Shown: positions 3,088 through 24,509, numbered from the stretch's first letter. The stretch: DNA of 33,332 bases from an uncultured Nitrospiraceae bacterium (GCA_964347155.1 CAYFXR010000149.1:1-33332), one strand, 5' to 3'. Notes: generated by a model not told the origin, from the letters alone. A program made the numbers and translations.

Positions 3088-4092
3088 TTACCCGCCTATT
3101 TTAGACATAGCTTTTATATAGCTGGATAAAGTTATATTCTCATTGAGCAGATGCCTCTGAGGTTTTACTTTTACTGCATAGCAAAAAAGCTCGTCAATCT
3201 CGTTCTCAGTGGCTCCACTCCTCATCGGGGTTTTTATATCAACTGTTAAATCTGAAAAAAGACACGGCCTTATCTTCCCGTTGGCAGTAAGCCGGAGCCT
3301 GTTGCAATAGTTGCAGAAATGATCACTTAACGGACTGATAATTCCGATAACCCCCTTTGCCCCTTCAATCCTGAAATTTCTTGAAGGGCCTCTGCCTTTA
3401 AATTCAAGACGTTTAAGGTTGCCGAGAAATGATATTTTTTCCAGAACTTCTTCTGAACTTATGCATTTGTCTTTTGACCACATTCCGCTACACATTGCAG
3501 GCATGAACTCGATAAATCTTATGTGATATGGGTGGTTTAGAGTAAGCGATGCAAATGACCGTATCTCATCATCATTAAGACCACGTATGGGCACAACATT
3601 TATTTTTACCGGGGAGAGACCGATTTTTTCCGCCTCTCTTATGGATTTCCAGACACGATCAATATCGCCTCCATCGGTTATTTTCCTGTACCTGTCAGAA
3701 TCAAGGGTGTCGAGGCTTATGTTTACGCGGTCGAGACCGGCCCGTTTCAACATCCTGGCGAGTTTTGACAGTATAATTCCATTAGTAGTAAGGCTTAAAT
3801 CATATATGCCTATGTCTTTGATCGATGAAATCAGCTCAATGATATTCTTTCTCAGGAGAGGCTCACCACCGGTAATGCGGACTTTTCTTAAGCCTTGTTT
3901 GTAGGCAATGCGTACAAACCGCACGATCTCTTTATCTGTTAATATATCGGGTTCCTTGAAGTATCTCGGCCTCTTTGAAGGCATGCAGTAAATGCATTTA
4001 AGATTGCATTTATCCGTTATGGATATTCGGAGGTAATCTATACGGCGGTCAAAGGAATCTTTGAGAGGATATGTTTTATTTGACTGCTTCAT
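3088..4092 (-). CDS. moaA: GTP 3',8-cyclase MoaA (radical SAM, molybdenum cofactor biosynthesis)
   Basis: CNLKCIYCMP radical-SAM motif, a YLRISITDKCN N-terminus and C-terminal CxxCxxxxxxxxxxxxxC. The likely start is the ATG at 4092 (the ORF track starts at TTG 4110). Confidence 0.9.
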   Translation of the reverse strand: MKQSNKTYPLKDSFDRRIDYLRISITDKCNLKCIYCMPSKRPRYFKEPDILTDKEIVRFVRIAYKQGLRKVRITGGEPLLRKNIIELISSIKDIGIYDLSLTTNGIILSKLARMLKRAGLDRVNISLDTLDSDRYRKITDGGDIDRVWKSIREAEKIGLSPVKINVVPIRGLNDDEIRSFASLTLNHPYHIRFIEFMPAMCSGMWSKDKCISSEEVLEKISFLGNLKRLEFKGRGPSRNFRIEGAKGVIGIISPLSDHFCNYCNRLRLTANGKIRPCLFSDLTVDIKTPMRSGATENEIDELFCYAVKVKPQRHLLNENITLSSYIKAMSKIGG

Positions 4093-4176
4093 ATGCTGTT
4101 TTATTAACAACGCTTCATGTAAATTCGTTTTAACAGTTCCAGCCGTTCCAAATGTTCCAACGGATGGAACTGCTCA

Positions 4177-4201
4177 AACGGTTCAAACTGTTTGAACCGT
4201 T
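4177..4201. promoter_or_regulatory. Perfect 12-1-12 palindrome AACGGTTCAAAC-T-GTTTGAACCGTT between the moeA-like stop and moaA start
   Basis: Seen directly. Overlaps the stop codon of the upstream minus-strand gene. Related GTTCCAACGG/GGAAC half-sites lie at 4141-4170. Confidence 0.45.
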
Positions 4202-5306
4202 ATTTTCCAAACGGACAAACCGGAAAACGGCATTGATCACATTTTAAACACAGCCCTCCATGTCCGAGTTCCGCGATTTCCTTTCTACCTATCCTTTCAC
4301 CTGCAAGAACCCTTGGAAGTACTAGGTCAAATACGGTTATACTGGCGTACATGCCGCAGGCTGGTATACCAAGAATCGGGATGAGTTCAGAGTTTCGAGA
4401 AGTGAGATCCGAACTGTTAATTTTTAGATATGCTATAAGAAACATGGATCCGGGCTGAACAGGAGATCCATAATACATTTCTTCGACACCAAGATTTCTG
4501 ATCGCGAACCTTGTAACGTCATCAGGGTCAACAGACATGCCGCCTGTTGTGATAATAAGGTCTGCTCCCGTATCTATCAACTCTCTGATTCTTTCTTCGA
4601 TAAATTGAGCATCGTCAGGAGCAAAGTATACCCCGATGATTTTTCCATCTAGATGTTCTATTTTTTTTCTTATTACAGGCTCAAAGGCGTCCTTTATTTT
4701 TCCATGGTAGACTTCATTCCCTGTTATTACTACCCCTGTCTTGGGCTTTTTTATTTTTTTTACGCTTAAGACACCTCCTGCATCTACGGCTATTCTGACC
4801 GAATCCTCGACAATAGATTTTTTAACTACCAGAGGGATAGCCCTTGTTCCGGCAACAAGCTGTCCTTCTTTAACAATAGAGTTGTTATGAATCGTTGCGC
4901 ACGTAACCTCGCCGAGCAGATTGAATTCAAGGAGAGCTTTACGTTCTATTTTCAACAATCCATCTTTTTCAGCAACGAGATTTATTTTGCCTTCGTTCGG
5001 GTCTCCAGCCATTTTTACACCATCACCTGCAAGGGCCTTAGCAATTGCATATGCCGCATCGTTTTCATGCATCTCGTCTTCTTTCATCTCGAGGATAAAA
5101 AGATTTTCCTTCCCAAGTCTCTGGAGATGTTCAATATCCTTTTCTTGTATGATATGCCCTTTTTTAAACGCCCTGCCTTTGAATTCACCGGGTCTTATTT
5201 CGGTTATGTCATGTGACAATACCATTCCTACGGCTTCAGTTACGGGGACTGCCTTTGCACTGATACTTTTACTTTTATTGGTATCCATTTCTGTGATTTC
5301 ACACAT
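4200..5306 (-). CDS. MoeA/MogA-family molybdopterin-binding (MoCF biosynthesis domain) protein with C-terminal Cys cluster
   Basis: KTGVVITGNEV...TTGGMSVDPDDVT matches the MoCF_biosynth fold. The N-terminus is MoeA-like. C-terminal CLKCDQCRFPVCP. Adjacent to moaA. Confidence 0.6.
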   Translation of the reverse strand: MCEITEMDTNKSKSISAKAVPVTEAVGMVLSHDITEIRPGEFKGRAFKKGHIIQEKDIEHLQRLGKENLFILEMKEDEMHENDAAYAIAKALAGDGVKMAGDPNEGKINLVAEKDGLLKIERKALLEFNLLGEVTCATIHNNSIVKEGQLVAGTRAIPLVVKKSIVEDSVRIAVDAGGVLSVKKIKKPKTGVVITGNEVYHGKIKDAFEPVIRKKIEHLDGKIIGVYFAPDDAQFIEERIRELIDTGADLIITTGGMSVDPDDVTRFAIRNLGVEEMYYGSPVQPGSMFLIAYLKINSSDLTSRNSELIPILGIPACGMYASITVFDLVLPRVLAGERIGRKEIAELGHGGLCLKCDQCRFPVCPFGK

Positions 5307-6259: not shown

Positions 6260-6601
6260 TCAACTTCTCCCGTTGCCAAATACTTCGATGAATTTCTTAT
6301 CGAGCATCTCATTCACGCCTTCTTCAAGTAGTTCATATTTCCTTAAAAATGTTTTTGCCTCTTTTGTTAATAATGCCCCGCCGCCGTGAAGCCCCCCGGC
6401 TCTTCTTTCCACAAGTCTTGTTCCGAGCCTTTGTTCCATTGTCTGTATATAACTCAGAGCCTTTCTGAATGATATATTGATGTCTTTTGCTGCCTTATTA
6501 ATTGACCCCAATTTATCAATAGCCTTCAGTAAAGCCTCCCTGCCTCTGCCGAAAACAGGTTCGCCATCAACCTCAAGCCAGATCTTTGAGCGAATCTGCA
6601 T
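6260..6601 (-). CDS. ModE-like N-terminal winged-helix regulator (molybdate-responsive regulator HTH domain only, no Mop domains)
   Basis: 113 aa. FGRGREALLKAIDKLGSINKAAKDINISFRKALSYI is the ModE N-domain signature. It lacks the C-terminal di-Mop domains of full-length ModE. Confidence 0.7.
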   Translation of the reverse strand: MQIRSKIWLEVDGEPVFGRGREALLKAIDKLGSINKAAKDINISFRKALSYIQTMEQRLGTRLVERRAGGLHGGGALLTKEAKTFLRKYELLEEGVNEMLDKKFIEVFGNGRS

Positions 6602-6712
6602 AGTATCGTTATAACATATTTGTCACAACGGTGTAAAGAAAAAAATGTCAAAATGCAATTATCGGAGGCATAGATAACTTCGAAATATTTAAAAATGCAA
6701 CATGATTACCAG

Positions 6713-7899: not shown

Positions 7900-8754
7900 A
7901 TGTTTAAACTCAGTATATTCCTTATAGCATTTCTAATACTTTTCATTAGTACAAATATATCATATGCTAAGGAAAAGGAGATTATCTTTGCCATTTCGCC
8001 AATGGCATCTCCTGTTTCCACTCTCTCTTATTACAATGATTTTATAAGATATCTTTCTAAAAAGACAGGTCTAATGATCATTCCTAAACAGAGGAGAACC
8101 TACGCTGAGATTAACTCCCTTTTAAAGAAGGGCGAAGCAGAGTTCGCCTATACGTGCACCGGGGCTTACATAAGAGGCAATTTTGACTTCGGACTTGAAC
8201 TCCTTGCCGTGCCAGTCATAAATGGCAAGACAAGCTATCATTCATACATAATTGTAAACAAAGAAAGCAAGATCGAGATCTTCTCCGGGCTTCGAGGAAG
8301 GGTCTTTGCCTTTACAGACCCGCTCTCATTGACAGGGAGACTGTACATCATACATCTCCTTGATACAATGGGTCTCATACCGGAGGAATTTTTTGAAAAG
8401 ACTTTTTACACATCAAGTCATGAAAAATCAATACAATCTGTGGCAAATGGACTTGCAGATGGGGCGGCAGTTGACAGTCTTATTTTTGACGATATGAAGA
8501 GAAAACATGCCCCGTCCACAAGCAATGTAAGAATTATAAAGATTTCACCGCCTTACGGCATACCTCCGGTTGTGGCGTCTCCTGTTGCGGAAAAATCAAC
8601 CAAGCAGCTTATATTAAAGACCCTTATTAAGATGGCAGAGGATACAACCGGAAGGGAGATTCTCCAGGGAATCCATATTGAAAAATTTATTATTCCTGAC
8701 CCTGCTATTTATAAGACTGCGGCAGAAGTGAGGGAGGCAACATTTCTACGGTGA
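7900..8754 (+). CDS. PhnD/SsuA-family periplasmic solute-binding protein (sensor-associated, AioX/ArxX-like)
   Basis: Signal peptide. PhnD-like fold motifs. Single mature Cys in FAYTCTGAY. A strong SD (AGAGGGGAA) precedes the ATG. Overlaps the kinase start (GTGA). Confidence 0.8.
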   Translation: MFKLSIFLIAFLILFISTNISYAKEKEIIFAISPMASPVSTLSYYNDFIRYLSKKTGLMIIPKQRRTYAEINSLLKKGEAEFAYTCTGAYIRGNFDFGLELLAVPVINGKTSYHSYIIVNKESKIEIFSGLRGRVFAFTDPLSLTGRLYIIHLLDTMGLIPEEFFEKTFYTSSHEKSIQSVANGLADGAAVDSLIFDDMKRKHAPSTSNVRIIKISPPYGIPPVVASPVAEKSTKQLILKTLIKMAEDTTGREILQGIHIEKFIIPDPAIYKTAAEVREATFLR

Positions 8755-10175
8755 GATTAGGAAAAATCTACAACAGCATAGCATTTCGCATCTCTATCTC
8801 CATTGCCGTTGTAGTGGCTGCTACAACGATGGGTGTGAGTTGGCTGCTGCTGAGAGAAGAAAGAAAAACACTGGAACTTGAACTTCGTAGCAAGGGAATG
8901 TACCTTGCAAATACAATGTCCCACCATATCATCGAACCATTCCTTTATGAGGAACGGCATGAAATATTCTCTCTTCTCAAAGCATCTATGATTGACGAAG
9001 AGAGTCTTGTGGTGCATGCCGAGGTCTATGACAAGAATAGAGAATTGATTGTTACAGCAGACAAGGATGAAAAGTGGCAAACAATAAAGTTTCAGCCGCT
9101 TAACTTTGAAGATTCACTAGAGGATATTATTATCGAGGAAGACAATATCTTGCCAATTTATCATATATCTTTACCTCTTAAAGTAGAAGCACTTGGAACT
9201 ATTGGATTTATCAGGCTGTGCATAACAAAAGAATACCTTTATAAGACCCTTGGAAATGTAAAACAGAAGCTTTATCTTCTGTCAGCAGCCGTTATCTTTA
9301 TCGGCATAATGCTGGGACTCTGGATGGCAAGAAAAATTTTAAGACCAATACTTATTCTTAATAAAGGGGTAAAAATGGTTGGTGAAGGAGGGCCGGGTGT
9401 TGAGATACCTGTAGTTGGAGAGGGCGAGATAAAAGAGCTGGCACTTTCTTTTAACAGAATGTCCGAGAAATTGAAAGAACAGATTGAGGTGATAAAGACC
9501 GCTCAGGAAAATCTTATAAGGACAGAGAAACTCTATGCCGTTGGAGAATTCTCTGCAGGAATTGCACATGAAATAAAGAACCCTCTTACATCCATCAAAA
9601 TGCTTATGCAGACTACACGATACAAAAAAAAGGCACTGTCCGACAGAGATTTTGAGATTATTGAGGGAGAGATAAACAGGATAGATCGTATCGTAAAAGA
9701 GTTTCTTGCTTTTGCAAGACCTGAAAAGATTGAAAAGACAGATATAAGTATAAATGATGTCCTTGAAGAAGTTATTACATTGACCGAGCCAAAGATGAAA
9801 CAAACTACCATACAACTTGAACAGATGTTTTCTCCCAACCTGCCGATGATCAAGGGAAATCTTGATGGTCTCAAACAGGTTTTTCTCAATATTGTTCTTA
9901 ATGCCTTACAAGCAATGAATGGTGGTGGCACACTGGGTATAGAGACATCAAAGAATAAAGATATGCTGTCAGTTGTAATAAGAGACACCGGCGCTGGGAT
10001 TCCAAAACAGGATTTAAAAAGAATTTTTGACCCTTTCTTTACAACAAAAGAGGAAGGAACCGGTATGGGACTGGCTCTAACGTATAAAATAGTGAATGAC
10101 CACTCTGGCAAGATTGATATAGATTCGACTACATCCGGTACAACGGTAAAAGTGGATTTGCCCTTACCCGAATAA
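8751..10175 (+). CDS. Sensor histidine kinase (2 TM, periplasmic domain, HAMP, HisKA, HATPase_c)
   Basis: HEIKNPLTSI H-box and N/G1/G2 boxes (DTGAGIP, GTGMGLAL). GTG start overlaps the upstream stop. Confidence 0.85.
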   Translation: MRLGKIYNSIAFRISISIAVVVAATTMGVSWLLLREERKTLELELRSKGMYLANTMSHHIIEPFLYEERHEIFSLLKASMIDEESLVVHAEVYDKNRELIVTADKDEKWQTIKFQPLNFEDSLEDIIIEEDNILPIYHISLPLKVEALGTIGFIRLCITKEYLYKTLGNVKQKLYLLSAAVIFIGIMLGLWMARKILRPILILNKGVKMVGEGGPGVEIPVVGEGEIKELALSFNRMSEKLKEQIEVIKTAQENLIRTEKLYAVGEFSAGIAHEIKNPLTSIKMLMQTTRYKKKALSDRDFEIIEGEINRIDRIVKEFLAFARPEKIEKTDISINDVLEEVITLTEPKMKQTTIQLEQMFSPNLPMIKGNLDGLKQVFLNIVLNALQAMNGGGTLGIETSKNKDMLSVVIRDTGAGIPKQDLKRIFDPFFTTKEEGTGMGLALTYKIVNDHSGKIDIDSTTSGTTVKVDLPLPE

Positions 10176-10343: not shown

Positions 10344-11750
10344 ATGAATACACTTCTTATTATAGATGACGAAAAAGCAGTGAGATACTCCTTTAAAAGG
10401 ATGTTTGAAGATGAATACAGGGTTTTAACTGCTGAGGACGGTGTATCGGCTCTGAATATTCTCGATACCAGCTATATTGGTGTTGACGTCATTTTCCTTG
10501 ATGTCAGAATGCCTGGCATGGGGGGGATAGAGGTGCTTAAAAAGATTAAGGAGATAACAAAGAACATTCCTGTTGTAGTAATGACGGCATTTGGCGATTC
10601 TGATACTGCTATTGAAGCTATGAAAGAAGGGGCGTTTGATTACCTTACAAAGCCTTTAGAGGGTAACCAGCTAAAAGATGTTATTGAAAAGGCGCTTGCA
10701 TCGGCACGGCTTCAGCAAGATGCTTCCTGTTGTGGAACGATAGAAGAACTCTCGGATAAGGAAGAGACAATTGTGGGAAAAACTCAGTCAATTCTTGATG
10801 TTTGTAAGATGATCGGTCAGGTTGCAAACACAGATGTGCCTGTGCTCGTAACAGGAGAAAGTGGTGTAGGAAAGGAGTTAGTGGCACGGGCAATATACAA
10901 CCACGGTAGTAGAAAAGGTAGACCTTTTATGGCTGTTAATTGTGCTGCACTTCTTGAGGGTGTGGTAGAGAACGAATTATTTGGTTCAGAGAAAGGGGCA
11001 TTCACGGGCGCTGACAAGAGGAGAATAGGAAGGTTCGAACAGTGTGACGGGGGTACTATCTTCCTTGATGAGATCGGAGATATGAGTATTCCAACTCAAG
11101 CTAAATTACTCAGGGTACTCCAGGATGGTAGCTTCGAGCGTATCGGAAGCAATGAGACAATAAAGACAAATGTGCGTATCATTGCTGCCAGTAATAAAAG
11201 TCTCCACGACGAGGTAAGGAACGGCAGGTTCAGAGAAGACCTGTTTCACAGACTCAATGTTTTTTCCATACACATTCCTGCGCTCAGAGAAAGAATGGAA
11301 GATATTCCGTTGCTCTCAGATTACTTCCTCTCAAGGGCGGTCAGGGATACGGATAAAAAGATCACGGGATTTTCACATGACGTAATTAAACGTTTTATGT
11401 CATATAACTGGCCGGGCAATGTGAGAGAGCTTGAAAATACCATAAAACGGGCTGTGGTAATTACTACTGGAGAGGTTCTTGGTGTGAATGATGTTATTTT
11501 AAATGCTGAGTCATGTACAAAAGAGTTTCAAGAGCTTTCTGTGGTAATTGACGGTTTATTTGAAAGGACGATTAACACGCAAGCCCCTTCAGACAGTTAT
11601 CACTCTATCCTCTCACGTGTGGAAAAATGTCTTATTGAAAAGGCACTAAATGTAACAAAGGGGAATCAGGTACAGGCATCTGCACTACTCGGTATTACAA
11701 GAGTCACATTAAGAAAAAAGATGCAAGAGTTCAAAATCCCGTCTGTATAG
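10344..11750 (+). CDS. Sigma-54-dependent response regulator (REC + AAA+ sigma54-activator + Fis-type HTH), NtrC/AioR-like
   Basis: Receiver Asp (FLDVRMPGMGG), Walker A GESGVGKE, GAFTGA motif, C-terminal HTH. Confidence 0.9.
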   Translation: MNTLLIIDDEKAVRYSFKRMFEDEYRVLTAEDGVSALNILDTSYIGVDVIFLDVRMPGMGGIEVLKKIKEITKNIPVVVMTAFGDSDTAIEAMKEGAFDYLTKPLEGNQLKDVIEKALASARLQQDASCCGTIEELSDKEETIVGKTQSILDVCKMIGQVANTDVPVLVTGESGVGKELVARAIYNHGSRKGRPFMAVNCAALLEGVVENELFGSEKGAFTGADKRRIGRFEQCDGGTIFLDEIGDMSIPTQAKLLRVLQDGSFERIGSNETIKTNVRIIAASNKSLHDEVRNGRFREDLFHRLNVFSIHIPALRERMEDIPLLSDYFLSRAVRDTDKKITGFSHDVIKRFMSYNWPGNVRELENTIKRAVVITTGEVLGVNDVILNAESCTKEFQELSVVIDGLFERTINTQAPSDSYHSILSRVEKCLIEKALNVTKGNQVQASALLGITRVTLRKKMQEFKIPSV

Positions 11751-11812
11751 GAAATGCACAGCCTTTATGCATACTTTTGATCATTTTATATAACTCACTC
11801 CTGATTAAATCC

Positions 11813-12021: not shown

Positions 12022-12037
12022 TGGCATGTTATTTGCT
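12022..12037 (+). promoter_or_regulatory. Sigma-54 (-24/-12) promoter TGGCATGTTATTTGCT upstream of CheY-like gene
   Basis: GG and GC spaced as in the TGGCAC-N5-TTGCA consensus. Nearly identical to the second site at 12746. Confidence 0.6.
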
Positions 12038-12098
12038 TAACATAACGTCAATACAAGAGTATCTTGACCGTATTATATTTTACGAAACCAAAGATTAC

Positions 12099-12503
12099 AT
12101 GCTGGTAGAAAATAAAGAAAACACTTCTACAGGTATAAAAAAAAGGATTCTGATTGTTGATGATGAAACATTGATTCTCTCTCAGCTGTCAAATGCCCTT
12201 CGTATTTTTTGTGATTTTCAAGGTGAAGTGAAAACTGTTAAAAGTGGCAGGGAAGCTGTGAGAGAAATCAGTCATTGTTTCTGTGACATATGTTTTCTTG
12301 ATATCAATCTCCCTGATTTAAATGGCTTGGAAGTAATGAAAAAAATAAATGAGTTATCTCCTGTGACAAAAATTGCAATTATGACAGCGAGTCTTATAAA
12401 TAATGATATGATGAAGACAATAAAAGACGGCGCATCTCTTCTTATCGAAAAGCCATTCGATCTCTCCCGAATCAAGACTTTTGTGAAACAGGTATTGGGG
12501 TAA
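12099..12503 (+). CDS. Stand-alone CheY-like response-regulator receiver domain
   Basis: RILIVDDE ... DINLPDLNG ... TAS...K receiver motifs. The ORF-track N-terminal extension (12021-12098) overlaps the sigma54 promoter. The first in-frame ATG is at 12099. Confidence 0.75.
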   Translation: MLVENKENTSTGIKKRILIVDDETLILSQLSNALRIFCDFQGEVKTVKSGREAVREISHCFCDICFLDINLPDLNGLEVMKKINELSPVTKIAIMTASLINNDMMKTIKDGASLLIEKPFDLSRIKTFVKQVLG

Positions 12504-12745
12504 ATCTGGGTGTTTTATGGTGTGTCGTAATTGATATTCAGAAACGTATCCTGAAACACGTGCAGCACAAGATTCGGGTAAAATCTTTGCATAGAAAATA
12601 TACAGCCTGTACAATCACTATCCAGAATAATCCAAGAAATGCAGTTAGCCACGATTATAGTGACCCTTTGCCGAGCCCCATTTATAAATGACAAAGGGAG
12701 TTTTTTAAATACTTAATACCATCTTGTAAAAGTTTCAGGGCTAAA

Positions 12746-12761
12746 TGGCAGGTTATTTGCA
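12746..12761 (+). promoter_or_regulatory. Sigma-54 promoter TGGCAGGTTATTTGCA upstream of SPFH gene / respiratory operon
   Basis: Excellent match to TGGCAC-N5-TTGCA. Lies 52 nt upstream of SD AAGGAGGA (12813-12820) and ATG 12826. Confidence 0.7.
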
Positions 12762-12825
12762 TCAAGAAAGGGAAAGGTTCATTGAACAAAAAATCTTTTA
12801 CGAAAAATAAAAAAGGAGGAGTTTG

Positions 12826-13605
12826 ATGCAACAGCTAACTTCTATTGGTTTCTTACTAGCTGTAATTTTAGGTATATATCTTCTTTCAATTGCAATTTAT
12901 ATTCTAAGGGAATACGAGAGGGGTGTCGTCTTCAGGCTTGGTAGGTTAATACCTGTAAAAGGTCCTGGTCTTGTAATTATCATACCAATTATCGATAGAC
13001 TTGTGAAGGTAAGCCTGCGGATCGTTGCCTTGGAGGTGCCTGCTCAGGACGTAATTACAAAAGACAACGTCTCCATAAAAGTAAGTGCGGTTCTCTATTA
13101 CAGACCTGTTGATGCTAACAAGGCCATAACGGAAGTTGAAGATTATCATTACGCTACTTCGCAGATATCTCAAACAACCCTGAGGAGTGTTTTAGGACAC
13201 AGTCATCTTGATGAGCTCCTTGCCAAAAGGGAGGAATTAAATTCTCGGCTACAAAAAATCATTGATGACCAAACAGAACCCTGGGGCATTAAGGTTACGA
13301 CGGTCGAGGTAAAAACCGTTGACCTTCCATCAGAAATGTTGAGGGCAATTGCAAGACAAGCAGAAGCTGAAAGAGAGAGAAGGGCAAAAGTCATTCATGC
13401 AGAAGGTGAATATCAGGCATCTCAAAAACTTGCAGATGCAGCGGCTATCATTGGGACCCAGCCAACGGCAATACAACTCAGATTTCTCCAGACATTAGTA
13501 GAAGTAGCTACTGAAAGGAATTCAACAACAATATTCCCTGTACCCATAGACCTTCTGGAACCTTTCTTGAAGAAATCTAGAAAAGAGAGTGGTGGAGATT
13601 TGTAA
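12826..13605 (+). CDS. SPFH/band-7 (stomatin/prohibitin-like) membrane protein
   Basis: N-terminal TM helix. [15 protein letters not shown]-domain signature. Coiled-coil/Ala-rich C-terminus. Confidence 0.85.
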
Positions 13606-13626
13606 GGGCGAAAGATTGCATACGCG

Positions 13627-14541
13627 ATGTATAGAGAAAACCGAAAGATGAGAAAGCTGAACCGAAGAGAATTTATAAGGCTGACAGCTGTTGGCGGGAC
13701 CGGCATTCTCCTGCCCCAACCGCTAAGGGTGCTTGATGACGCGTTTGACCAAATTATCGGGACTACACAGCAGAATAGCAAGATCGAATATGTACCGAAG
13801 CCGGTCACTGGGGTCAGATTCGGGATGGTTATAGACCTCGGAAAGTGCATTGGTTGCAGGCGGTGCATGTATGCCTGTAAACGGGAAAACAATGTGCCTG
13901 ACACCATTTCCCCTCCTTATATCATGGTGTTTGAAACCGAATCAGCTACGGGCGTAACAGGCCACTTCCCTTCACCGGAAATTCCGTGGAAGGGCACAAC
14001 AATGTATTACACCAGACTCCGGAAAGATAAGTGGTATATGCCAGTACAGTGTAACCATTGCGATCATGCTCCGTGTGTGAAAGTTTGTCCTACCGGAGCG
14101 TCATATAAAGATCCTGATGGTCTTGTATTGATAGATTATGAAAAATGTATAGGATGCCGGTATTGTATGACTGCATGTCCGTACAACGCCCGAAGATTCA
14201 ATTGGTGGGAGCCGGAGATACCTCATGACCGTATAAATCCCCTAGTGCCCTTACGCAGACACGGCATTGTAGAGAAATGCACCTTCTGCGTACACCGTAC
14301 AAGAAGGGGTAAATTCACACGTTGTGTGGAAGTATGCCCGAACAAGGCAAGAACCTTCGGAAATTTCAATGACCCTGACAGCAGGGTTTCCAAATTGGTT
14401 GAAACCGAAAGGAACTTCCGACTAAAGGAAGGACTTAATACAGAGCCACGTATATGGTATCTCACAAGACCCAAAGAAAAGCGCATGAGGTGGTATCGTC
14501 CCCTGCCTCCGTCTGAAAATATCAGAGGTGTCAGGTCATGA
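13627..14541 (+). CDS. TAT-exported 4x[4Fe-4S] ferredoxin subunit (NrfC/PsrB/DmsB-like)
   Basis: Twin-arginine motif NRREFIRL. Four Cys clusters (CIGCRRCMYAC; CNHCDHAPCVKVCP; CIGCRYCMTACP; CTFC...CVEVCP). The alternative start at 13648 is equally possible. Confidence 0.85.
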   Translation: MYRENRKMRKLNRREFIRLTAVGGTGILLPQPLRVLDDAFDQIIGTTQQNSKIEYVPKPVTGVRFGMVIDLGKCIGCRRCMYACKRENNVPDTISPPYIMVFETESATGVTGHFPSPEIPWKGTTMYYTRLRKDKWYMPVQCNHCDHAPCVKVCPTGASYKDPDGLVLIDYEKCIGCRYCMTACPYNARRFNWWEPEIPHDRINPLVPLRRHGIVEKCTFCVHRTRRGKFTRCVEVCPNKARTFGNFNDPDSRVSKLVETERNFRLKEGLNTEPRIWYLTRPKEKRMRWYRPLPPSENIRGVRS

Positions 14542-15716
14542 AAGATGTAAGCAGATCCTTTCACATCTTTGTTGTCGTATTGCTGGTCGTGATAGGCCTG
14601 GGCAGCTTCAACTGGCTTCGTTTCTTAACACATGGCCCCGGACTTACCGGTTCAAGTGATGCGGTGCCATGGGGAATATACATAACCGGGCTGGCATACT
14701 TTATAGGATTAAGTGCAGGCGCAACAATCGTCGGATTATTGATACACGGGTTTGGCCGTAATGACTACAAACCAATAGGGATACGCGCAATTCTTCTCGC
14801 GCTCCTCTGTATCTTCGGAGCCACACAATTTGTCCTGGTAGACCTGGGTGTTCCTTTTAGGGGATTGAAGGTGCCTCTCGTACTTCACAACCTGACGTCA
14901 CTCTTCCTTATCTCCTCGTCAAGCTATTACGGATTTATGACCATATTGGGAGGAGAACTCTACTTCTCAATAAAAGTGGCGAAAGGGAAAGCAAGCCACC
15001 GGGATGAAACAATAGCAAAATGGCTTGGAATTCTTGCGGTTCCGTATGCCCTCTGGGTAGTTCATGCCTTCACTGGATCAATCTTTGGTGTAGTAAAAGC
15101 AAGGGAAATGTGGAATACCCCCATGCTGCCGGTACATTTCGTGATATCAGCCATTGCAAGCGGATTTGCCATGGTGATATTGGTAGGAATAATAACATCG
15201 AAAATAGAAAAAAGAGAGCTCCTGAGCAGTGGAACTTATGACCACATGGGTAAACTGCTGGCCTTCTTTGTGGTAGTAACCCTGTTCCTTGACTTCTTTG
15301 ACTATTTTATTCTTCGATACAGCGCAAAAGCAGAGGCAATGGAAACATGGCATATTCTGACGGGCAGATATGCCCCTGTATTGGCAATGAATATCGGTGG
15401 ATTGGCTTCTGCGTTTTTGATACTGATCTTCAGAAAGGGGAGAACCGTCAATGGAATGTTTATTGCTACGATCCTGGTACAGCTGGCAATCATAGCATAT
15501 CGTATTAATCTGGTATCAGTAGGACAGTTAGTCCCTTTATTCCCGGGTATGGGTGAAATATACTACAGCCCGACATTTTCAGAGATATCAGTGGCGTTGG
15601 CTTTAGTGGCGCTTGTAATACTCCTTTATGCGGTGCTGTCCAGGATAATGCCTATGGAAGAAACAGTTCAGGAACTTGTACAGCAGCCGGTACAACGCAG
15701 CTGGAGGCATAGATAA
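14538..15716 (+). CDS. NrfD/PsrC-family polytopic membrane quinol-interacting subunit
   Basis: 392 aa, ~9-10 TM helices. ATGA overlap with the upstream FeS gene, typical for PsrBC/NrfCD pairs. Confidence 0.85.
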   Translation: MKDVSRSFHIFVVVLLVVIGLGSFNWLRFLTHGPGLTGSSDAVPWGIYITGLAYFIGLSAGATIVGLLIHGFGRNDYKPIGIRAILLALLCIFGATQFVLVDLGVPFRGLKVPLVLHNLTSLFLISSSSYYGFMTILGGELYFSIKVAKGKASHRDETIAKWLGILAVPYALWVVHAFTGSIFGVVKAREMWNTPMLPVHFVISAIASGFAMVILVGIITSKIEKRELLSSGTYDHMGKLLAFFVVVTLFLDFFDYFILRYSAKAEAMETWHILTGRYAPVLAMNIGGLASAFLILIFRKGRTVNGMFIATILVQLAIIAYRINLVSVGQLVPLFPGMGEIYYSPTFSEISVALALVALVILLYAVLSRIMPMEETVQELVQQPVQRSWRHR

Positions 15717-15752
15717 TTATTCATTAAGAAGCAAAAAGGAAAATTGAACTAG

Positions 15753-17219
15753 TTGATAGGCGGAGGTGAAAAATTGGACAAACAATCACGTGTAGATGTT
15801 CCAAATAGATATATTCAAAATAGATCCAGAAAAACAAAAAATGACTTTTCATATTATTGGGGTATTTGGTTTATCTTAGGCATTCTCCTTATATATATAC
15901 TGATAAAAATCGTCACCTATGCGCCACATACGGAAGAAGAAAAATGGATACCGGAACCTGCCAGGATTACTATCCCCGGCAGTCCCGATTATGTTGGTTC
16001 AGAGAGGTGCAGGGATTGCCACTGGAAGGAATACGATACCTGGAAGAATACATTACATTCCAAGTTTATGCAACTCCCGAATGAATACACGATCATAGGT
16101 GACTTTGAGAAAAATAACAAGTTGACTGTTAAAGTCACGAGTAAGGTGCCCGGGCTATCAAACAGACTGGTTACCAGCACAATGTATAAGAAGAACGGTG
16201 GTTTCTACGTGAACACCATTGGTCCTCATTTGAAGTACAACAATTATGAAATCACTCACGTCATCGGCATCGGAAGGAGACAGACATATATCACTACGTT
16301 CTCAAACGGTGAAATGCATGTCCTTCCAGTCGAGTGGGACGTCGAGAAGAAGACGTGGGTTGACAACAACGGCTTAAAAAACCACTACCCTGGAGATGGT
16401 GAATACTGGAGCGATAAGGGCAGTATCTGGCAATACAGGTGCGGTGGCTGCCACGTTACCGGCATGAAGATAAATTATGATGAAACAAGAGATTTCTTTG
16501 ACACCGACTGGGTAGACACCGGCATTGCATGTGAGGCATGCCATGGACCGGGTAGTAATCATGTCCAGGCTGCAAGTATGTTCTTTGAGGGCGAGAAGGA
16601 CACAATCATTAATCCGGCAAAGTTGCCGTGGCGGCTTCGTGCCATGATATGTGGCCAGTGCCACAACTGGGGATTAAGCACTACTGCAATTTCCCCAAAC
16701 AAGGAAGGCTTCCCGAAACAATTCAGCTACCCGTATGGTTATCAGGCTGGAAAAGCACTCTATCTCTACTATGTAGAGGAGCGTAAAAAGGAGAAGATAC
16801 ACCACCAGCAATACAATGAGTGGCAGCAGAGCGAGCACGCAAAAACAGGCGTTATGTGCACGAATTGTCACAATGTCCATCAAGAAGAAGATATAAAAAT
16901 TGCCATGACAAAGCTTACCCCGGACAGCTTATGTATGGATTGCCACAAGACATTGCAAAGAAGGGCAGCGCACAGAATTCATACATTCGGAAGCTGTGTT
17001 GCCTGTCACATGCCGAAGACAATAGGGCATGAACACAGTCATACATTTAAATTTATTTCGCCTGAGCTGAGCATAAGGGCGGGAGGCATTGAAAAACAAC
17101 CTAATTCCTGTAGCGGCTGTCATCACCACAAAGAGACGCCATTAGTGAATCTTGTTGAATTCCTTGATGCCGCCAAAAAAAGAGATATGCCGAAACCATT
17201 TTCAGCACACAGGAGGTAA
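15753..17219 (+). CDS. Membrane-anchored octaheme cytochrome c
   Basis: Eight CxxCH motifs (CRDCH, CGGCH, CEACH, CGQCH, CTNCH, CMDCH, CVACH, CSGCH). N-terminal TM anchor. No ATG before the anchor, so a TTG start (15753 or 15774) is assumed. Confidence 0.8.
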   Translation: MIGGGEKLDKQSRVDVPNRYIQNRSRKTKNDFSYYWGIWFILGILLIYILIKIVTYAPHTEEEKWIPEPARITIPGSPDYVGSERCRDCHWKEYDTWKNTLHSKFMQLPNEYTIIGDFEKNNKLTVKVTSKVPGLSNRLVTSTMYKKNGGFYVNTIGPHLKYNNYEITHVIGIGRRQTYITTFSNGEMHVLPVEWDVEKKTWVDNNGLKNHYPGDGEYWSDKGSIWQYRCGGCHVTGMKINYDETRDFFDTDWVDTGIACEACHGPGSNHVQAASMFFEGEKDTIINPAKLPWRLRAMICGQCHNWGLSTTAISPNKEGFPKQFSYPYGYQAGKALYLYYVEERKKEKIHHQQYNEWQQSEHAKTGVMCTNCHNVHQEEDIKIAMTKLTPDSLCMDCHKTLQRRAAHRIHTFGSCVACHMPKTIGHEHSHTFKFISPELSIRAGGIEKQPNSCSGCHHHKETPLVNLVEFLDAAKKRDMPKPFSAHRR

Positions 17220-17279
17220 CGTATTTAGGTTTTCTTGCTGCAAGATCTATGAACAAAGGAGGGAACTGAACAATAGGCC

Positions 17280-18851
17280 ATGAAAAGAGTTCTTTTATAC
17301 GTAATAACTGCCCTGATAGTCATGACAAATATTCATTATTCATATGCTGCAGAGGAATCATCCGCGGAGTTGCCTTATGTAAGACCCCAGTTTTTCTGTG
17401 GCGCCTGTCATGTCCTTACTTATCCTAAGGTAATAAAAAAGGCGCATACGTCATGGCAGGCTGGTAAACATAAAGATGTCCCCTGTGTAGATTGCCATTA
17501 TCCTCCTGAAAAACTCGATGTCAGAATCCCCGAACATGAAAAAATTCCAAGAGATGAAGAGACTGCATCAGGCAAGAAGACGGCTCTGGAGTTTATGAAG
17601 ACCGAGCTGGAAGTCTTATCAAGGCTGATAACAATATTGAATATGGAAGAGTCAGTGATAAGGACAAAGCCAAGAATTGACGACAGGAGTTGTAAGCAAT
17701 CCAAATGCCATCCGCCAACCGGCATTGGCAGGGAAGGAGAGTTCTGGACTAAAAAAATCAATTTCTTTGAGTATGAAAGAGAGGATAAATCAAAAGGCGT
17801 TATCCCGTATGTTCATGAAAAACATTTTGATAAGGAGAAATGGATAGAAGGTCAGGAGATGCACTGTACAACCTGTCATCAACATGAGACTAGTCAGAAA
17901 CATTTTGAAGTCTCCCGGAAGAAGTGCTTTCTCTGCCACTTTAAGAATGTCAAATTAAATGAAGAACGGGCAAAATGCTCACTATGTCACGAGATTCCCA
18001 CAAAACCTCTTCAGAGACAAAAGAAAGAAGGAGCAGACCCTGATGAAAAACCTATTACTCATCAATCGATTGAAGAGGCAAAGGTACAGTGCGAGAGCTG
18101 CCATCTCCACTTTATAAAAGGTAACGGTACGGTAAGGAAGGAAAAGTGTCTTAATTGTCATGAAAATGAAGAATCAACTATTAAGGAGGTGCTTAATAAA
18201 AAACGTATGCATGAAGAACATGTAGCAGGACAGAATGCCGGTTGTTTTAGTTGCCATGAGACTATTGAGCATAATAAACAGGGAGATTTTATAGATATTG
18301 CAAGGGAAAACTGCCAGGCATGCCATCCTGATCATCATAAGTACCAGAAGATGCTTTTACTTGGAGAAAAGAGGAAAGGAGTATCACATATCCCGGGCCT
18401 CATGTTTGCTGTGAATACGAACTGCCTCGCATGTCATCTTGAAGAAAGACTTATTAATGGAGAGAAAGTTGTGCATGGCTCGGGAAAGGCGTGTGCTGCT
18501 TGCCATACTGAAAAACATGAAGGCATGGTAAAGGAGTGGAAGGACAAGGCAGGGGAAGAGTTAAAGAATGCCCAGGAGATCGGCAAAGAGGCTTCAAATG
18601 CTATTGAAGAAGCAAAGGGCAAGGTGAGGGAGGAGATATTAAAAGAAGCATTGGCAATGGTAAAAGAGGGTCAGGAGAATTTAAAGATTGTTGAATACGG
18701 AGGGGGGGTTCACAATAAGAAATACTCTATAATGCTTCTTGACGTGGCCATGTCCAACTTTGAGGATGCCATAGATTTGCTTAGTGAAGATGAGGACGAA
18801 GAGGAAGGCGAAGAAGACGAAGAATACGATGAAGATGAGGATGATGAATGA
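17280..18851 (+). CDS. Dodecaheme cytochrome c (11 CxxCH + 1 CX4CH) with N-terminal anchor and poly-acidic C-terminal tail
   Basis: Motifs counted directly, including the non-canonical CKQSKCH. Final 27 aa are almost entirely D/E. SD AAGGAGGGA upstream. Confidence 0.85.
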   Translation: MKRVLLYVITALIVMTNIHYSYAAEESSAELPYVRPQFFCGACHVLTYPKVIKKAHTSWQAGKHKDVPCVDCHYPPEKLDVRIPEHEKIPRDEETASGKKTALEFMKTELEVLSRLITILNMEESVIRTKPRIDDRSCKQSKCHPPTGIGREGEFWTKKINFFEYEREDKSKGVIPYVHEKHFDKEKWIEGQEMHCTTCHQHETSQKHFEVSRKKCFLCHFKNVKLNEERAKCSLCHEIPTKPLQRQKKEGADPDEKPITHQSIEEAKVQCESCHLHFIKGNGTVRKEKCLNCHENEESTIKEVLNKKRMHEEHVAGQNAGCFSCHETIEHNKQGDFIDIARENCQACHPDHHKYQKMLLLGEKRKGVSHIPGLMFAVNTNCLACHLEERLINGEKVVHGSGKACAACHTEKHEGMVKEWKDKAGEELKNAQEIGKEASNAIEEAKGKVREEILKEALAMVKEGQENLKIVEYGGGVHNKKYSIMLLDVAMSNFEDAIDLLSEDEDEEEGEEDEEYDEDEDDE

Positions 18852-18983
18852 TTTTATGCTCTGTCCTATGATTGAAATATAGTAACTACTCATGTCTCTT
18901 CCTTTGGAATTTGAAAAAAAGGGAGGATTATAGGGGTGAGTTGCTACAAATATAACACAATTGATCGAAAAAAGGAGGTAACC

Positions 18984-19856
18984 ATGAGTAAGATAAATAC
19001 TGTAACTGTATCCCGCCGCGATGTGCTCAAGACAGGCAGCGCTGTTGTTGCGGCTGCTGCTACAACAACAGGCCTTGTGCCAGATGTAGCAGAGGCTGCA
19101 AAAAAGAAAAAGAAAAAACTTGCCCGCTGGGCTATGGTAGTTGACCTCAGGAGATGCATTGGCTGCAGGGGATGCTGCATTGCAGACAAGGCAGAATATG
19201 GAGCTGCACTCGGAAGGTATAACACGGTTGTCAAGAATGTAGAGTACGGCAAATATCCTGCTCCCCAAAAGCATTTCCTTCCTCGTCTGTGTAACCACTG
19301 TGCAGGCGACCCATCAAAAGAATGGCAGGTCCCGCCATGTGTTGAGGTATGTCCCGAAGCAAAAAGCGGAGAGAGGAAGAAAATGGGGAATGAAAGATAC
19401 AGGACAGGCGCTACGTATAAGCGACCTGACGGGATGATTTTGATAGATCCCAACCTCTGTATCGGCTGTTACAAATGTGTTGATGCATGTCCGTATGGAG
19501 TGCGCTCTCCTGACCCTAATGTAAAGCTTACCAGGCCTGACAGGGAAAAGGATATCGGAGTGGGTAAATGTACGTTCTGCCGGCATCGTGTCGATAAGGG
19601 AATTACGACTTCATGTACGAATACCTGTCAGGGCATGGCAAGGAATTTCGGTGATCTGAACGACAAAAAAAGCAAGGTCTATAAACTTGCCAAGGAATTT
19701 AAATTGCTCGAAAACAGGGACAAGTCAACCCTGCTTCCGGAAGAAAAGACTATGCCTCACGTATTTTATATAGACCCGGATGGTGTGTTAGCGCACTACA
19801 ATAAGAAAATTACAAAAGAGACAAAATTGCGGGAGTTTACATCCTGGTTTGAATAA
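18984..19856 (+). CDS. TAT-exported 4x[4Fe-4S] ferredoxin subunit partner of the molybdopterin enzyme (PsrB/ArrB/DmsB-like)
   Basis: SRRDVLK TAT motif after ATG 18984 (SD AAAGGAGG). Four Cys clusters. The ORF-track GTG 18936 extension is unlikely. Confidence 0.85.
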   Translation: MSKINTVTVSRRDVLKTGSAVVAAAATTTGLVPDVAEAAKKKKKKLARWAMVVDLRRCIGCRGCCIADKAEYGAALGRYNTVVKNVEYGKYPAPQKHFLPRLCNHCAGDPSKEWQVPPCVEVCPEAKSGERKKMGNERYRTGATYKRPDGMILIDPNLCIGCYKCVDACPYGVRSPDPNVKLTRPDREKDIGVGKCTFCRHRVDKGITTSCTNTCQGMARNFGDLNDKKSKVYKLAKEFKLLENRDKSTLLPEEKTMPHVFYIDPDGVLAHYNKKITKETKLREFTSWFE

Positions 19857-19889
19857 TGAATAACGAAAATACAGAAAGGAGGAAATAAA

Positions 19890-22373
19890 ATGGCTAATGT
19901 AACACGACGAAATTTCATACAGCTGGGCATCGCAAGCGGAGCCCTCCTTGCTGCCGGAGAAGGTATTGTATTCCCTGCTTTAGCTGGTGCAGTAAAGTTA
20001 GATAAAGGCGGCAAGGATTTCAACTTTAAGACGGATGCAGAGAGAACAGCCATTCCAACTGCATGCTGGTCATGTTTTACCAGGTGTGCGGCTATCGGTT
20101 TTGTGGAGGATGGCAAGCTTGTTAAAATCGAATCCAATCCTAATTCTATCAGAACCGAGGGCAAAATGTGTGCAAAAGGACAGTCAGGTCCCAACGATAT
20201 CTATTTCCCGGACAGGATACTCTATCCAATGAAACGTGCAGGCAAACGCGGTGAGGGTAAATGGAAGAGGATTTCCTGGGATGAGGCTATTACAGAATTA
20301 TCAGGACGGCTAAAAAAGCTCCGTGACGACGGTAATCCAGAGAAATTCATGTTCCACTATGGCATGATGGAGGCAAGTTCTAGAAAACTGATGAAAAACG
20401 TTTTCCTTGATACGTACGGCACAGGGACGATAGGAAACCATACCTCTACAAGCACGAGCGCAAAAAAGACAGCGCAGGAACTGACGTGGGGCGAGTTCTT
20501 CGATAACTGGGACTTTGACAATACCAAGTTTGTCATGAATTTTGGAAGTAACGTGCAGGAGGCCCATATCAATCATGTACCTTGCTCAAACAGGCTGATA
20601 AAGGCAAGGGTTGAAAACGGTGTAAAGAGTGTTACCTTTGATGTGAGATTTTCAAATACCGCGGCAAAGTCAACTGAATGGATACCAATCAAACCGGGAA
20701 CCGATGGAGCAGTTGCCCTCGCTATGTGTAATGTGATAATGCAAAACGATCTTTATGACAAGGATTTCTTTACATTCATCAGGGCTAAGGAGAATGTCAA
20801 TCTCTCTATAGACGAAAAGGTATCTGCTTTGAAATCTCACCTCTCCCGATATACACCTCAATGGGCGGAAAAAGTAAGCGGTGTGAGCGCCGCTAAGATC
20901 GAATCTCTCGCAAAAGAATTCGCAAAGACAAAGCCTGCAGTAGTAATCAGCTTTAGAGGGGCAATAGCCCATTACAACGGTGTCGAAAACGAACGTGCTA
21001 TCCAGATGCTTGCTGCAATAACAGGCAACATTGATAACCCAGGCGGAAGATGCAGAGGTGTGCGAGCCAGATGGGAATATCCAAAGGGGCCGAAAGATAA
21101 ACCGGAGACAAAGAGACTGGATATAATTGACGGCAAAGGCGCAGCCCTACCGACTCACAACATGGGACACCAGGTATTTAAGATGATCAAGGAAGGCGGT
21201 AATGGAAGACCTGAAGTATACATGTGGTACTGCTATAACCCTGTGTATGTGAACGGCGAAAGCACGGAGAATGCAGAGGTTCTGAAAGACGAAAAGATGA
21301 TCCCCTTTACAGTGGCTTCAACTATTGTCTATGACGAATCGAGCAAACTCGCTGATTTGATCCTGCCTGATGCCACCTATCTCGAAAGATGGGACTGGGA
21401 AGACAATGTCTCCCCCACTCAGATTCCAGAATACTATATCCGACAGCCCCTGGTAAAGCCGCTTGGGGAGGCCAGGGATTTTGGAGACGTGGTGATTGAG
21501 ATTGCAGAGAAAATGGGCATGCCTTTAGGTGTTGGCAGTTCTAAAGAGGAGTTTGTAAGGAAATCCTGCGAGATGACTCCCGGTGTAAAGGAGGCAGGCG
21601 GCTTTGAGTACATGAAGAAGCAGGGTGTGTGGCATGACCCGAATGAAAAACCTCGTTATCATCTATACAGGGAAGAAGTAAAGACTGACGGTGCAATTCT
21701 TGATGAAGCAACGGGCGTATACTGGAGAGGAAAAGCAGGTGAAGATTACACCAAGACCAGAAATGCATACAGACAGTATGTTGGCCAGAAAATAGGAGAC
21801 AAGGTCTACAGAGGCTTTTATCCTGACAAGCTCAATAAGACTGGTTACTTTGAGCTTTACTCCGCGCTTATGAAAGAAAAGGGCTTTGACCCTCTTCCAA
21901 CCTGGATGCCGATACCTGAGCATGAGAACATGAAGCCTGATGAGCTGATTCTTGCTACCTATAAAGTCGCCATTCATATCCTCTCAAGGAGTTCACACCG
22001 TAAATGGCTAAGCGAGGTTTACCATGACAATCCAGGATGGATCAATCCTAAAACCGCAGCTACACGGGGTATCAATGATGGAGACAAAATCAAGGTTAAA
22101 TCAAGAGTCGGAGAGATTATAACCAGAGCACGTGTTACCGAAAAGGTTATTCCCGGAGTCATAGCCATCTCCTTTCATGCAGGACGCGAGGAAAGCGGAA
22201 GATACGGATCAGGCAATAAGTCACCGGAGGCACATGATAATGACCCGGATCTCCAGAACAAGTTCTGGGATACATATGGTGTAAATTCAAACAGGATTAT
22301 CCCCAACTCTTCTGACCCAATAAGTGGCCAGCTGTGCTGTATGGATACGGTTGTAACAGTGACAAAAGCATAG
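19890..22373 (+). CDS. TAT-exported molybdopterin oxidoreductase catalytic subunit, Psr/Phs/Ttr/Arr clade of the DMSO-reductase family
   Basis: TRRNFIQLG TAT signal. N-terminal CxxCxxxC...C [4Fe-4S] motif (CWSCFTRC...MCAKG). RISWDEAI and FGSNVQEAH family motifs. 827 aa. SD AAGGAGGA. Confidence 0.85.
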   Translation: MANVTRRNFIQLGIASGALLAAGEGIVFPALAGAVKLDKGGKDFNFKTDAERTAIPTACWSCFTRCAAIGFVEDGKLVKIESNPNSIRTEGKMCAKGQSGPNDIYFPDRILYPMKRAGKRGEGKWKRISWDEAITELSGRLKKLRDDGNPEKFMFHYGMMEASSRKLMKNVFLDTYGTGTIGNHTSTSTSAKKTAQELTWGEFFDNWDFDNTKFVMNFGSNVQEAHINHVPCSNRLIKARVENGVKSVTFDVRFSNTAAKSTEWIPIKPGTDGAVALAMCNVIMQNDLYDKDFFTFIRAKENVNLSIDEKVSALKSHLSRYTPQWAEKVSGVSAAKIESLAKEFAKTKPAVVISFRGAIAHYNGVENERAIQMLAAITGNIDNPGGRCRGVRARWEYPKGPKDKPETKRLDIIDGKGAALPTHNMGHQVFKMIKEGGNGRPEVYMWYCYNPVYVNGESTENAEVLKDEKMIPFTVASTIVYDESSKLADLILPDATYLERWDWEDNVSPTQIPEYYIRQPLVKPLGEARDFGDVVIEIAEKMGMPLGVGSSKEEFVRKSCEMTPGVKEAGGFEYMKKQGVWHDPNEKPRYHLYREEVKTDGAILDEATGVYWRGKAGEDYTKTRNAYRQYVGQKIGDKVYRGFYPDKLNKTGYFELYSALMKEKGFDPLPTWMPIPEHENMKPDELILATYKVAIHILSRSSHRKWLSEVYHDNPGWINPKTAATRGINDGDKIKVKSRVGEIITRARVTEKVIPGVIAISFHAGREESGRYGSGNKSPEAHDNDPDLQNKFWDTYGVNSNRIIPNSSDPISGQLCCMDTVVTVTKA

Positions 22374-22462
22374 GATTACTCCAAACAATGGGCATTAAAG
22401 AGAAGGAGTTAAAGATTGTTATCAAAATATGCATACACGTCAGTGGAGGACAAATTTAACAA

Positions 22463-22746: not shown

Positions 22747-22754
22747 CTGAAGAA

Positions 22755-24350: not shown

Positions 24351-24509
24351 AAATACAGTTAAATTTTGTATTTTAAGAGCAAAAATAATGCCAATATATA
24401 AAATTAAAAAATAACTTTATTTTTAAGTAGTTGCATGTGATCAATTATGTTCTTAATGTCTAAAAAATATCCAGGATGTATATTCTCTATACAAAAAAAT
24501 AGAATGTCA

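Follow-up and report, generated by a model that had tools for sequence, protein, structure and literature searches.

Three candidate σ54 promoters with paired upstream palindromes beside an NtrC-type activator gene and a molybdoenzyme cluster in an uncultured Nitrospiraceae bacterium

Introduction

The 33,332-nucleotide stretch of DNA considered here (CAYFXR010000149.1:1-33332 of assembly GCA_964347155.1, hereafter the window), from an uncultured Nitrospiraceae bacterium, encodes a periplasmic binding protein, a histidine kinase and an NtrC-type σ54 activator, followed by a gene for a CheY-like response regulator and a cluster of respiratory genes. As read from its sequence, the window probably contains a three-component, σ54-dependent sensory circuit together with local target genes, which would be transcribed from three promoters referred to as P1, P2 and P3. 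P1 and P2, already put forward in an earlier reading of this DNA (the original prediction), are very probably genuine σ54 promoters, judging from their match to the consensus and their conservation in related loci; P3 was absent from that reading. Each of the three is preceded by a pair of palindromes that most likely binds the neighbouring activator, as suggested by the way in which the palindrome sequence follows the activator's recognition helix from locus to locus.

Predicted σ54 promoters and their conservation

The three promoters are located as follows.

12022-12037, + strand: P1, predicted σ54 promoter of the CheY-like gene (TGGCATGTTATTTGCT), an exact match to TGGCA-N6-TTGCW
12746-12761, + strand: P2, predicted σ54 promoter of the SPFH-led respiratory cluster (TGGCAGGTTATTTGCA), an exact match to TGGCA-N6-TTGCW
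24393-24378, - strand: P3, third predicted σ54 promoter (TGGCATTATTTTTGCT), an exact consensus match, intergenic and correctly oriented

A scan of the window with the σ54 consensus returned four exact matches to TGGCA-N6-TTGCW against 0.23 expected, an enrichment of ~17-fold (no shuffle out of 100 gave as many). Of these, P1, P2 and P3 are intergenic and correctly oriented, and each has the exact GG-N10-GC spacing and agrees with TGGCAC-N5-TTGCW at 10 of its 11 specified positions; in P1 the doublets are GG at 12023-24 and GC at 12035-36. The original prediction, which described P1 and P2 as sharing 14 of 16 positions with canonical GG/GC spacing, was right in this as well as in the coordinates, which hold on the + strand, the two differences falling at positions 6 (T/G) and 16 (T/A). 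Outside the 16-mer there is no similarity between P1 and P2, and their unrelated flanks indicate that they did not arise by a recent duplication.

Transcription is predicted to start at ~12048 from P1, at ~12772 from P2, giving a leader of ~54 nt, and at ~24366 from P3. The end of the motif is separated from the ATG of the first gene by 62 nt at P1, 65 nt at P2 and ~177 nt at P3; the P2 figure, as originally given, is correct if the SPFH gene starts at ATG 12826, which is preceded by the ribosome-binding site AAGGAGG at 12813-12819. P3 sits between a MOT1 gene and a cytochrome c gene and has a paired upstream site of its own.

For conservation, orthologues of the CheY-like protein (47-70% identity) were found by protein search and their contigs read, and four further loci (L172-L175) were reached via orthologues of the activator (68-84% identity). 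A -24/-12 element matching at least 9 of 11 positions lies 38-125 nt upstream of the start of the receiver domain in nine of 12 independent CheY-like loci, including the window, L081, L083, L086, L087, L088, L095 and L096; given a background rate of 1.4e-4 per nt, obtained from 2.4 Mb and equivalent to 0.018 per 130-nt stretch, the binomial probability of this is ~4e-14. A separate σ54 element also serves the next gene, downstream or divergent, which encodes either an SPFH protein or a multihaem cytochrome, in L081, L083, L084, L086 and L087. All five syntenic loci carry a -24/-12 element before the SPFH gene (the window, L083 at 1160, L173 at 8707, L174 at 8527 and L175 at 8519), and in L173-L175 it is the single σ54 element, 93-119 nt upstream of that gene. 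The claim that both motifs are σ54 promoters is upheld by this retention of the element at orthologous loci despite diverged intergenic DNA. When contigs were searched with the activator protein, the only matches were NtrC paralogues, of at most 48% identity and with no useful synteny.

Two further σ54-like sequences were noted. The first, TGGTAATCATGTTGCA at 6696-6711 on the - strand, is one mismatch from the consensus and lies among molybdenum-cofactor genes, ~95 nt upstream of a small LysR-type helix-turn-helix gene (6260-6601, - strand); no TGTATA palindrome occurs near it, so that it is probably a chance match. The second, TGGCATGGG(A/G)CT(T/G)GCT, recurs inside histidine kinase genes (L081 at 2760, L172 at 6896, L173 at 6890, L174 at 6707 and L175 at 6761), although not in the window's own kinase gene, and encodes in frame G-M-G-L-A, taken as the G2 box of the ATPase domain, so that codon conservation explains its recurrence.

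Paired palindromes as candidate activator sites

Side-by-side comparison of the regions upstream of all promoters exposed an element made up of two 17-bp palindromes, TGTATA-N5-TATACA, whose starts lie 20-21 bp apart. In the window it takes the following forms.

11744-11771: candidate upstream activator site 1, degenerate, TGTATAGGAAATGCACA overlapping TGCACAGCCTTTATGCA (2 and 3 mismatches)
12588-12624: candidate upstream activator site 2, TGCATAGAAAATATACA and TGTACAATCACTATCCA (1 and 2 mismatches)
24457-24493: candidate upstream activator site 3, TGTCTAAAAAATATCCA and TGTATATTCTCTATACA (2 and 0 mismatches)

Site 1 straddles the stop codon of the activator gene, 278 bp upstream of P1. Site 2, with palindromes at 12588 and 12608 (20 bp start to start), lies 158 bp upstream of P2 and is the best-conserved block in the alignment of the intergenic DNA of the window and L083, and site 3, with palindromes at 24457 and 24477 (again 20 bp apart), lies ~100 bp upstream of P3. 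Single palindromes with up to two mismatches number seven in the window against 1.8 expected, and pairs number two against 0.03, a count that none of 200 shuffles reached.

The arrangement recurs in related loci. In L081 (4268/4289), L083 (199/220), L174 (8401/8421) and L175 (8416/8436), paired sites likewise coincide with the end of the activator gene, and pairs precede all three promoters of L081, both of L083 and the SPFH promoter of L173, L174 and L175; L172 also has a pair, on a contig that ends before the promoter. In the six related loci with readable promoters, every σ54 promoter has a pair 70-280 bp upstream. Related loci contain ten pairs in 106 kb, whereas 1.2 Mb of unrelated loci, which carry other NtrC-family genes, contain no pair, and among the 175 loci fetched the exact 19-mer CTGTATA-N5-TATACAG is confined to the related ones.

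The palindromes also vary together with the DNA-binding domain of the activator. The recognition helix LLGITRVTLRKK, common to orthologues of 68-84% identity, is found in the activators of the window, L081, L083 and L172-L175, all of which have TGTATA-type sites, whereas the helix differs (LLN-I/M-S/T-YD-S/A-LR) in the activators beside the CheY orthologues of L087, L093 and L095, none of which has a TGTATA site. A different long palindrome occupies the same place in L087, and in L086, where the activator lies off the contig. This co-variation is the best argument, if not proof, that the palindromes are bound by the adjacent activator, and such binding is the most likely role of the pairs. The direct cis-link between the NtrC-type regulator and its targets is accordingly firmer than was first claimed, with a pair upstream of each promoter that tracks the helix.

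The long palindromes of L086 (~1355-1400) and L087 (~3700-3740) are near-perfect, for example TTGCCATAATGACAAAGATTTTTGTCATTATGGCAA, and lie between divergent σ54 promoters. They look like activator sites of another specificity in the same arrangement.

Alternative explanations

The promoters may be real σ54 promoters that are driven by an activator encoded elsewhere, in which case the palindromes would bind another factor or the neighbouring activator would act at other loci. Such genomes do contain numerous activator genes (4626 homologues at E<=1e-100), and the site belonging to P1 is both weak and distant. We nevertheless regard this as unlikely, since the pairs always accompany orthologues of this activator, often overlapping its stop codon, and are absent both where the neighbouring activator has another recognition helix and in the 1.2 Mb of loci with other NtrC-family genes.

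A second candidate element between the CheY-like gene and P2 had been nominated in the original prediction as an upstream activating sequence.

12664-12698, + strand: inverted repeat CCCTTTG-N21-CAAAGGG, then AGTTTTTT; no function supported

The repeat had been placed at 12663-12699 with a 23-nt spacer; its arms in fact occupy 12664-12670 and 12692-12698, with 21 nt between them. It is perfect over 7 bp and is followed by AGTTTTTT, which would suit an activator site or a terminator for the CheY-like gene, yet it is conserved in neither L083 nor L081, nothing resembling it lies upstream of P1 or P3, and the better candidate for an activator site is 12588-12624. Its predicted RNA fold reaches -7.6 kcal/mol (z=-0.73), a value equalled or bettered by 43 of 200 shuffled sequences. 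As a Rho-independent terminator it was rejected on account of its 21-nt loop, its weak fold and a scan around P1 and P2 in which no terminator was called. A function of either kind is therefore improbable.

It is more doubtful still that the σ54-like motifs are chance occurrences in AT-rich intergenic DNA and that the genes are read from unrecognised σ70-type promoters or by transcription running on from the activator gene. With one mismatch permitted the window contains nine motifs against 5.5 expected, which is unremarkable and means that only exact matches carry weight; those at 6696, 15452, 28709, 29626 and 31705 have no upstream palindrome. The fourth exact match, 17710-17695 on the - strand, likewise lacks a palindrome, lies antisense within a cytochrome gene and is probably due to chance. 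Against an origin by chance for P1, P2 and P3 stand the enrichment of exact matches, the conservation of position across diverged orthologous loci and the co-occurrence with a conserved upstream palindrome, while σ70-like matches around the P1/P2 region are at chance level (6 versus 5.7 expected).

Least plausible is the idea that TGTATA-N5-TATACA marks operators of a LexA-like or other repressor, as the arms of CTGTATA...TATACAG resemble those of the Escherichia coli SOS box, CTGT-N8-ACAG, but are spaced as CTGT-N11-ACAG, the window has no CTGT-N8-ACAG at all, the sites lie in pairs 20-21 bp apart and 70-280 bp upstream of promoters rather than over them, and the flanking genes are respiratory and not concerned with repair.

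The sensor module

The genes upstream of P1 encode the three components of the putative circuit.

7900-8754, + strand: PhnD-like periplasmic binding protein of the ArrX/AioX subfamily (Pfam Phosphonate-bd)
8751-10175, + strand: histidine kinase (Pfam HAMP, HisKA and HATPase)
10344-11750, + strand: NtrC-type σ54 activator (Pfam Response_reg, Sigma54_activat at E=6e-68 and HTH_8, a Fis-type helix-turn-helix)

The binding protein, whose gene overlaps that of the kinase by 4 nt at its end, is likely to be the first, signal-sensing component. Among solved structures its best matches are ArrX (6x6b, E=7e-46) and AioX (~1e-32), compared with 4e-12 or worse for PtxB and PhnD. Alignment against the AioX pocket residues listed in PMC5908839 shows that six of the seven are kept (Tyr, Cys, Tyr, Ser, His and Asp), with Ser163 replaced by Thr. 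These pocket residues are common to members of the family with different ligands (PMC5908839), and sequence alone therefore cannot decide whether arsenite or arsenate is bound.

In the activator, the AAA+ domain with its GAFTGA motif is visible in the translation; the top NCBIfam matches of the protein are NtrC and AtoC, both under the cut-off. The order of binding protein, kinase and activator is also found in L081, L172-L175 and L087.

The CheY-like gene

12099-12503, + strand: CheY-like single-domain response regulator of 134 amino acids (Pfam Response_reg, E=6e-24)

All catalytic residues of a receiver domain are present, namely the acidic pair, the phospho-acceptor Asp in CFLDINLPD, the Thr and the Lys. 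According to the public gene call (P0001, 156 amino acids) translation would begin within P1, at TTG 12033, while the open reading frame at its longest reaches back to TTG 12021. In orthologues 1-3 residues precede the RILIVDDE motif, and no standard start codon other than ATG 12099 lies downstream of the point at which transcription from P1 is predicted to begin; the N-terminal extension is thus spurious, as originally proposed, being excluded by the orthologue N-termini and beginning within the promoter itself.

Some orthologues are longer, at ~220 amino acids, and have PilZ-like motifs (RRQFERR...DISDAGIG) at their C-termini (L084 6001-6657, which is P0011, and P0003, P0004, P0006 and P0024); P0024 has a Pfam match to PilZ. 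These extensions hint at an output linked to cyclic di-GMP for this family of CheY-like regulators.

The respiratory cluster downstream of P2

The genes that P2 would control, and the transporter gene beyond them, are as follows.

12826-23408, + strand: putative P2 transcription unit (from Pfam and NCBIfam matches, twin-arginine translocation (Tat) signals and synteny with L083 and L173-L175)
12826-13605, + strand: SPFH protein
13627-14541, + strand: iron-sulphur protein, passing the DsrO cut-off
14538-15716, + strand: NrfD
15753-17219 and 17280-18851, + strand: two multihaem cytochromes c
18936-19856, + strand: iron-sulphur protein with a Tat signal
19890-22373, + strand: molybdopterin oxidoreductase of 827 amino acids with a Tat signal
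22734-23408, + strand: TorD-like chaperone
24510-25697, - strand: MOT1-type molybdate transporter

The earlier description of the SPFH gene as the head of a respiratory operon is fair, as the succession of SPFH, iron-sulphur protein, NrfD, cytochromes and Tat-bearing iron-sulphur protein recurs in L083, L173, L174 and L175. In every one of the five syntenic loci the cluster opens with the SPFH/Band-7 gene, which is an unusual partner for a set comprising NrfD, iron-sulphur protein, cytochromes and molybdoenzyme.

The molybdoenzyme scores 175 bits against the NCBIfam model for ArrA (cut-off 1600) and 36 against that for the arsenite oxidase large subunit (cut-off 359). In NCBIfam it comes nearest to PhsA, with a score of 342 against a cut-off of 694, and the solved structure that it matches best is PsrA (2vpw). 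Between the genes for the molybdoenzyme and the chaperone lies a 360-nt non-coding gap (22374-22733) with no convincing open reading frame and with repeats of G/C runs, including tandem AGGGGGATTT and CCCCACTTTA/TAAAGTGGGG.

The cluster is flanked by genes for molybdenum-cofactor biosynthesis (MoaA-like and MoeA-like) and an FmdE-like gene (3088-5306) on one side and by the MOT1-type transporter gene on the other, and the same neighbours are seen in L174 and L175. The gene content suggests a self-contained molybdoenzyme island.

The pentahaem cytochrome c gene downstream of P3

23416-24201, - strand: pentahaem cytochrome c gene (five CXXCH motifs, Pfam cytochrome c families and signal peptide MNRTISILLLIIMIPMSNTLSAQ)

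The open reading frame is listed as extending to 24339, with a GTG start; the signal peptide begins at Met47, which corresponds to ATG 24201, the likely start of the gene. The predicted leader from P3 is then ~165 nt long (24366-24202, - strand) and strongly structured, with a fold of -49.1 kcal/mol (z=-3.33), and holds a 9-bp stem, CGTGTCCGT...ACGGACACG, together with further ACGGAC/GTCCGT repeats. A scan of the window, this leader included, gave no Rfam match at the gathering threshold.

A 25-nt hairpin element, GGTATCGTCCCGA-NNN-ATCGGGACA, is present in two copies where none is expected, at 22700-22724 (+ strand) and 24274-24250 (- strand). Both copies are on the sense strand, the first 10 nt before the ATG of the TorD-like chaperone gene and the second ~50 nt before that of the cytochrome c gene, within the P3 leader; no copy exists in any of the 175 loci fetched. 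The element could form a hairpin in RNA or serve as a binding site for a protein.

The proposed circuit

In the circuit as we picture it, the binding protein would capture an oxyanion and thereby activate the kinase, by analogy with AioXSR and NtrC, and the kinase would phosphorylate the NtrC-type activator. The activator would then oligomerise on the paired 17-bp palindromes, 100-280 bp upstream of the three -24/-12 promoters, and use ATP to open the complex of the σ54 holoenzyme at P1, P2 and P3. P1 would thereby give rise to the CheY-like regulator, P2 to the cluster running from the SPFH protein to the chaperone, and P3 to the pentahaem cytochrome c. Binding of the activator to the palindromes, RpoN-dependent transcription and the nature of the signal are parts that we infer. 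For the CheY-like protein we suggest, with little confidence, that once induced by the system it would compete for phosphoryl groups of the same kinase, and so act as negative feedback or as a branch output.

A number of observations weigh against this scheme. No rpoN gene lies in the 33-kb window, and its presence in the genome is assumed from that of the activator. Not every CheY-like orthologue has the promoter: L089 and L094 are without one, L093 has a match of only 8 of 11 positions and in L084 the nearest site is 346 nt upstream. The P1 site consists of one good and one poor palindrome, 278 bp away from the promoter. Between the upstream sites and the promoters, a scan with the consensus for integration host factor (IHF) gave no consistent site, and the distances separating them (~72-212 bp, measured from the centre to GG) show no helical phasing. 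The unusual length and structure of the P3 leader may reflect extra regulation. With respect to feedback, the closest syntenic loci (L173-L175) have no CheY-like gene, and the PilZ-like C-terminal extension in some orthologues points to an output role rather than to a phosphate sink.

Comparison with known systems

In the AioXSR system, aioBA is read from an RpoN-dependent -24/-12 promoter (PMC7533571), and the site that AioR protects is the palindrome GTTCGGATTTCCGAAC (PMC5335332). The locus described here resembles AioXSR, ArxXSR and ArrXSR in the subfamily of its binding protein and in the presence of a kinase and a σ54 regulator beside a cluster for a molybdoenzyme of the DMSO reductase family, and resembles AioXSR also in having a target operon with an RpoN-type promoter and a palindromic activator site upstream, which here is a predicted one. 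It differs in several respects. AioXSR, ArxXSR and ArrXSR control arsenic-metabolising molybdoenzymes, whereas by NCBIfam the present enzyme is none of AioA, ArxA and ArrA. The AioR site is GTTCGG-N4-CCGAAC, in contrast to the TGTATA-N5-TATACA pairs of the window, in which the AioR-type operator occurs six times with up to three mismatches against 6.1 expected, and never near the promoters. There are three promoters, unlike in AioXSR-type systems, one of them driving an additional CheY-like gene. The lineage, probably Nitrospirota/Thermodesulfovibrionia to judge from the names of the orthologues, also sets the locus apart from these systems.

NtrC at glnAp2 and AtoC at atoDAEB are the classical examples of enhancer-dependent σ54 promoters. 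The NtrC site, TGCACC-N5-GGTGCA, is a 6-5-6 dyad, present in adjacent pairs of ~40 bp at ~70-150 bp upstream of the -24/-12 element. Paired 6-5-6 dyads are likewise found here, together with an activator composed of a receiver, a GAFTGA-containing AAA+ domain and a Fis-type helix-turn-helix. The half-site sequence is different, and where the classical systems respond to nitrogen status or acetoacetate, the input here would come from a periplasmic binding protein. The genes targeted are respiratory ones, and no IHF-like site was detected.

The CheY-like protein is similar to single-domain regulators that serve as phosphate sinks or branches (PMC5964349, PMC3868531), in that it is a lone receiver whose catalytic residues are all kept and whose gene lies next to those of a kinase and a regulator. 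Unlike these (PMC5964349, PMC3868531), its gene is predicted to be under the σ54 promoter of the system itself, which would create an induced feedback loop; further differences are that some of its orthologues are fused to a PilZ-like domain and that close relatives lack the gene.

Significance

It is possible, although we offer this as a tentative suggestion, that the ArrX-like sensor and the σ54 regulon induce an uncharacterised chain of periplasmic molybdoenzyme and multihaem cytochromes in uncultured Thermodesulfovibrionia. The enzyme, with a catalytic subunit outside ArrA, ArxA and AioA, might use an oxyanion of the arsenic type, or a related one, either respiring or oxidising it, and the CheY-like protein might provide built-in feedback or a branch output.

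The concept follows the known pattern of AioXSR combined with NtrC, and thus extends existing knowledge rather than changing it. What the locus provides is a testable cis-regulatory map of a respiratory cluster in an uncultured lineage, on which three promoters and their likely activator sites are placed and the start of the CheY-like gene is corrected. Searches for TGTATA-N5-TATACA pairs could lead to the other targets of the activator in related genomes, and the ArrX-like sensor offers a route to the substrate of the molybdoenzyme.

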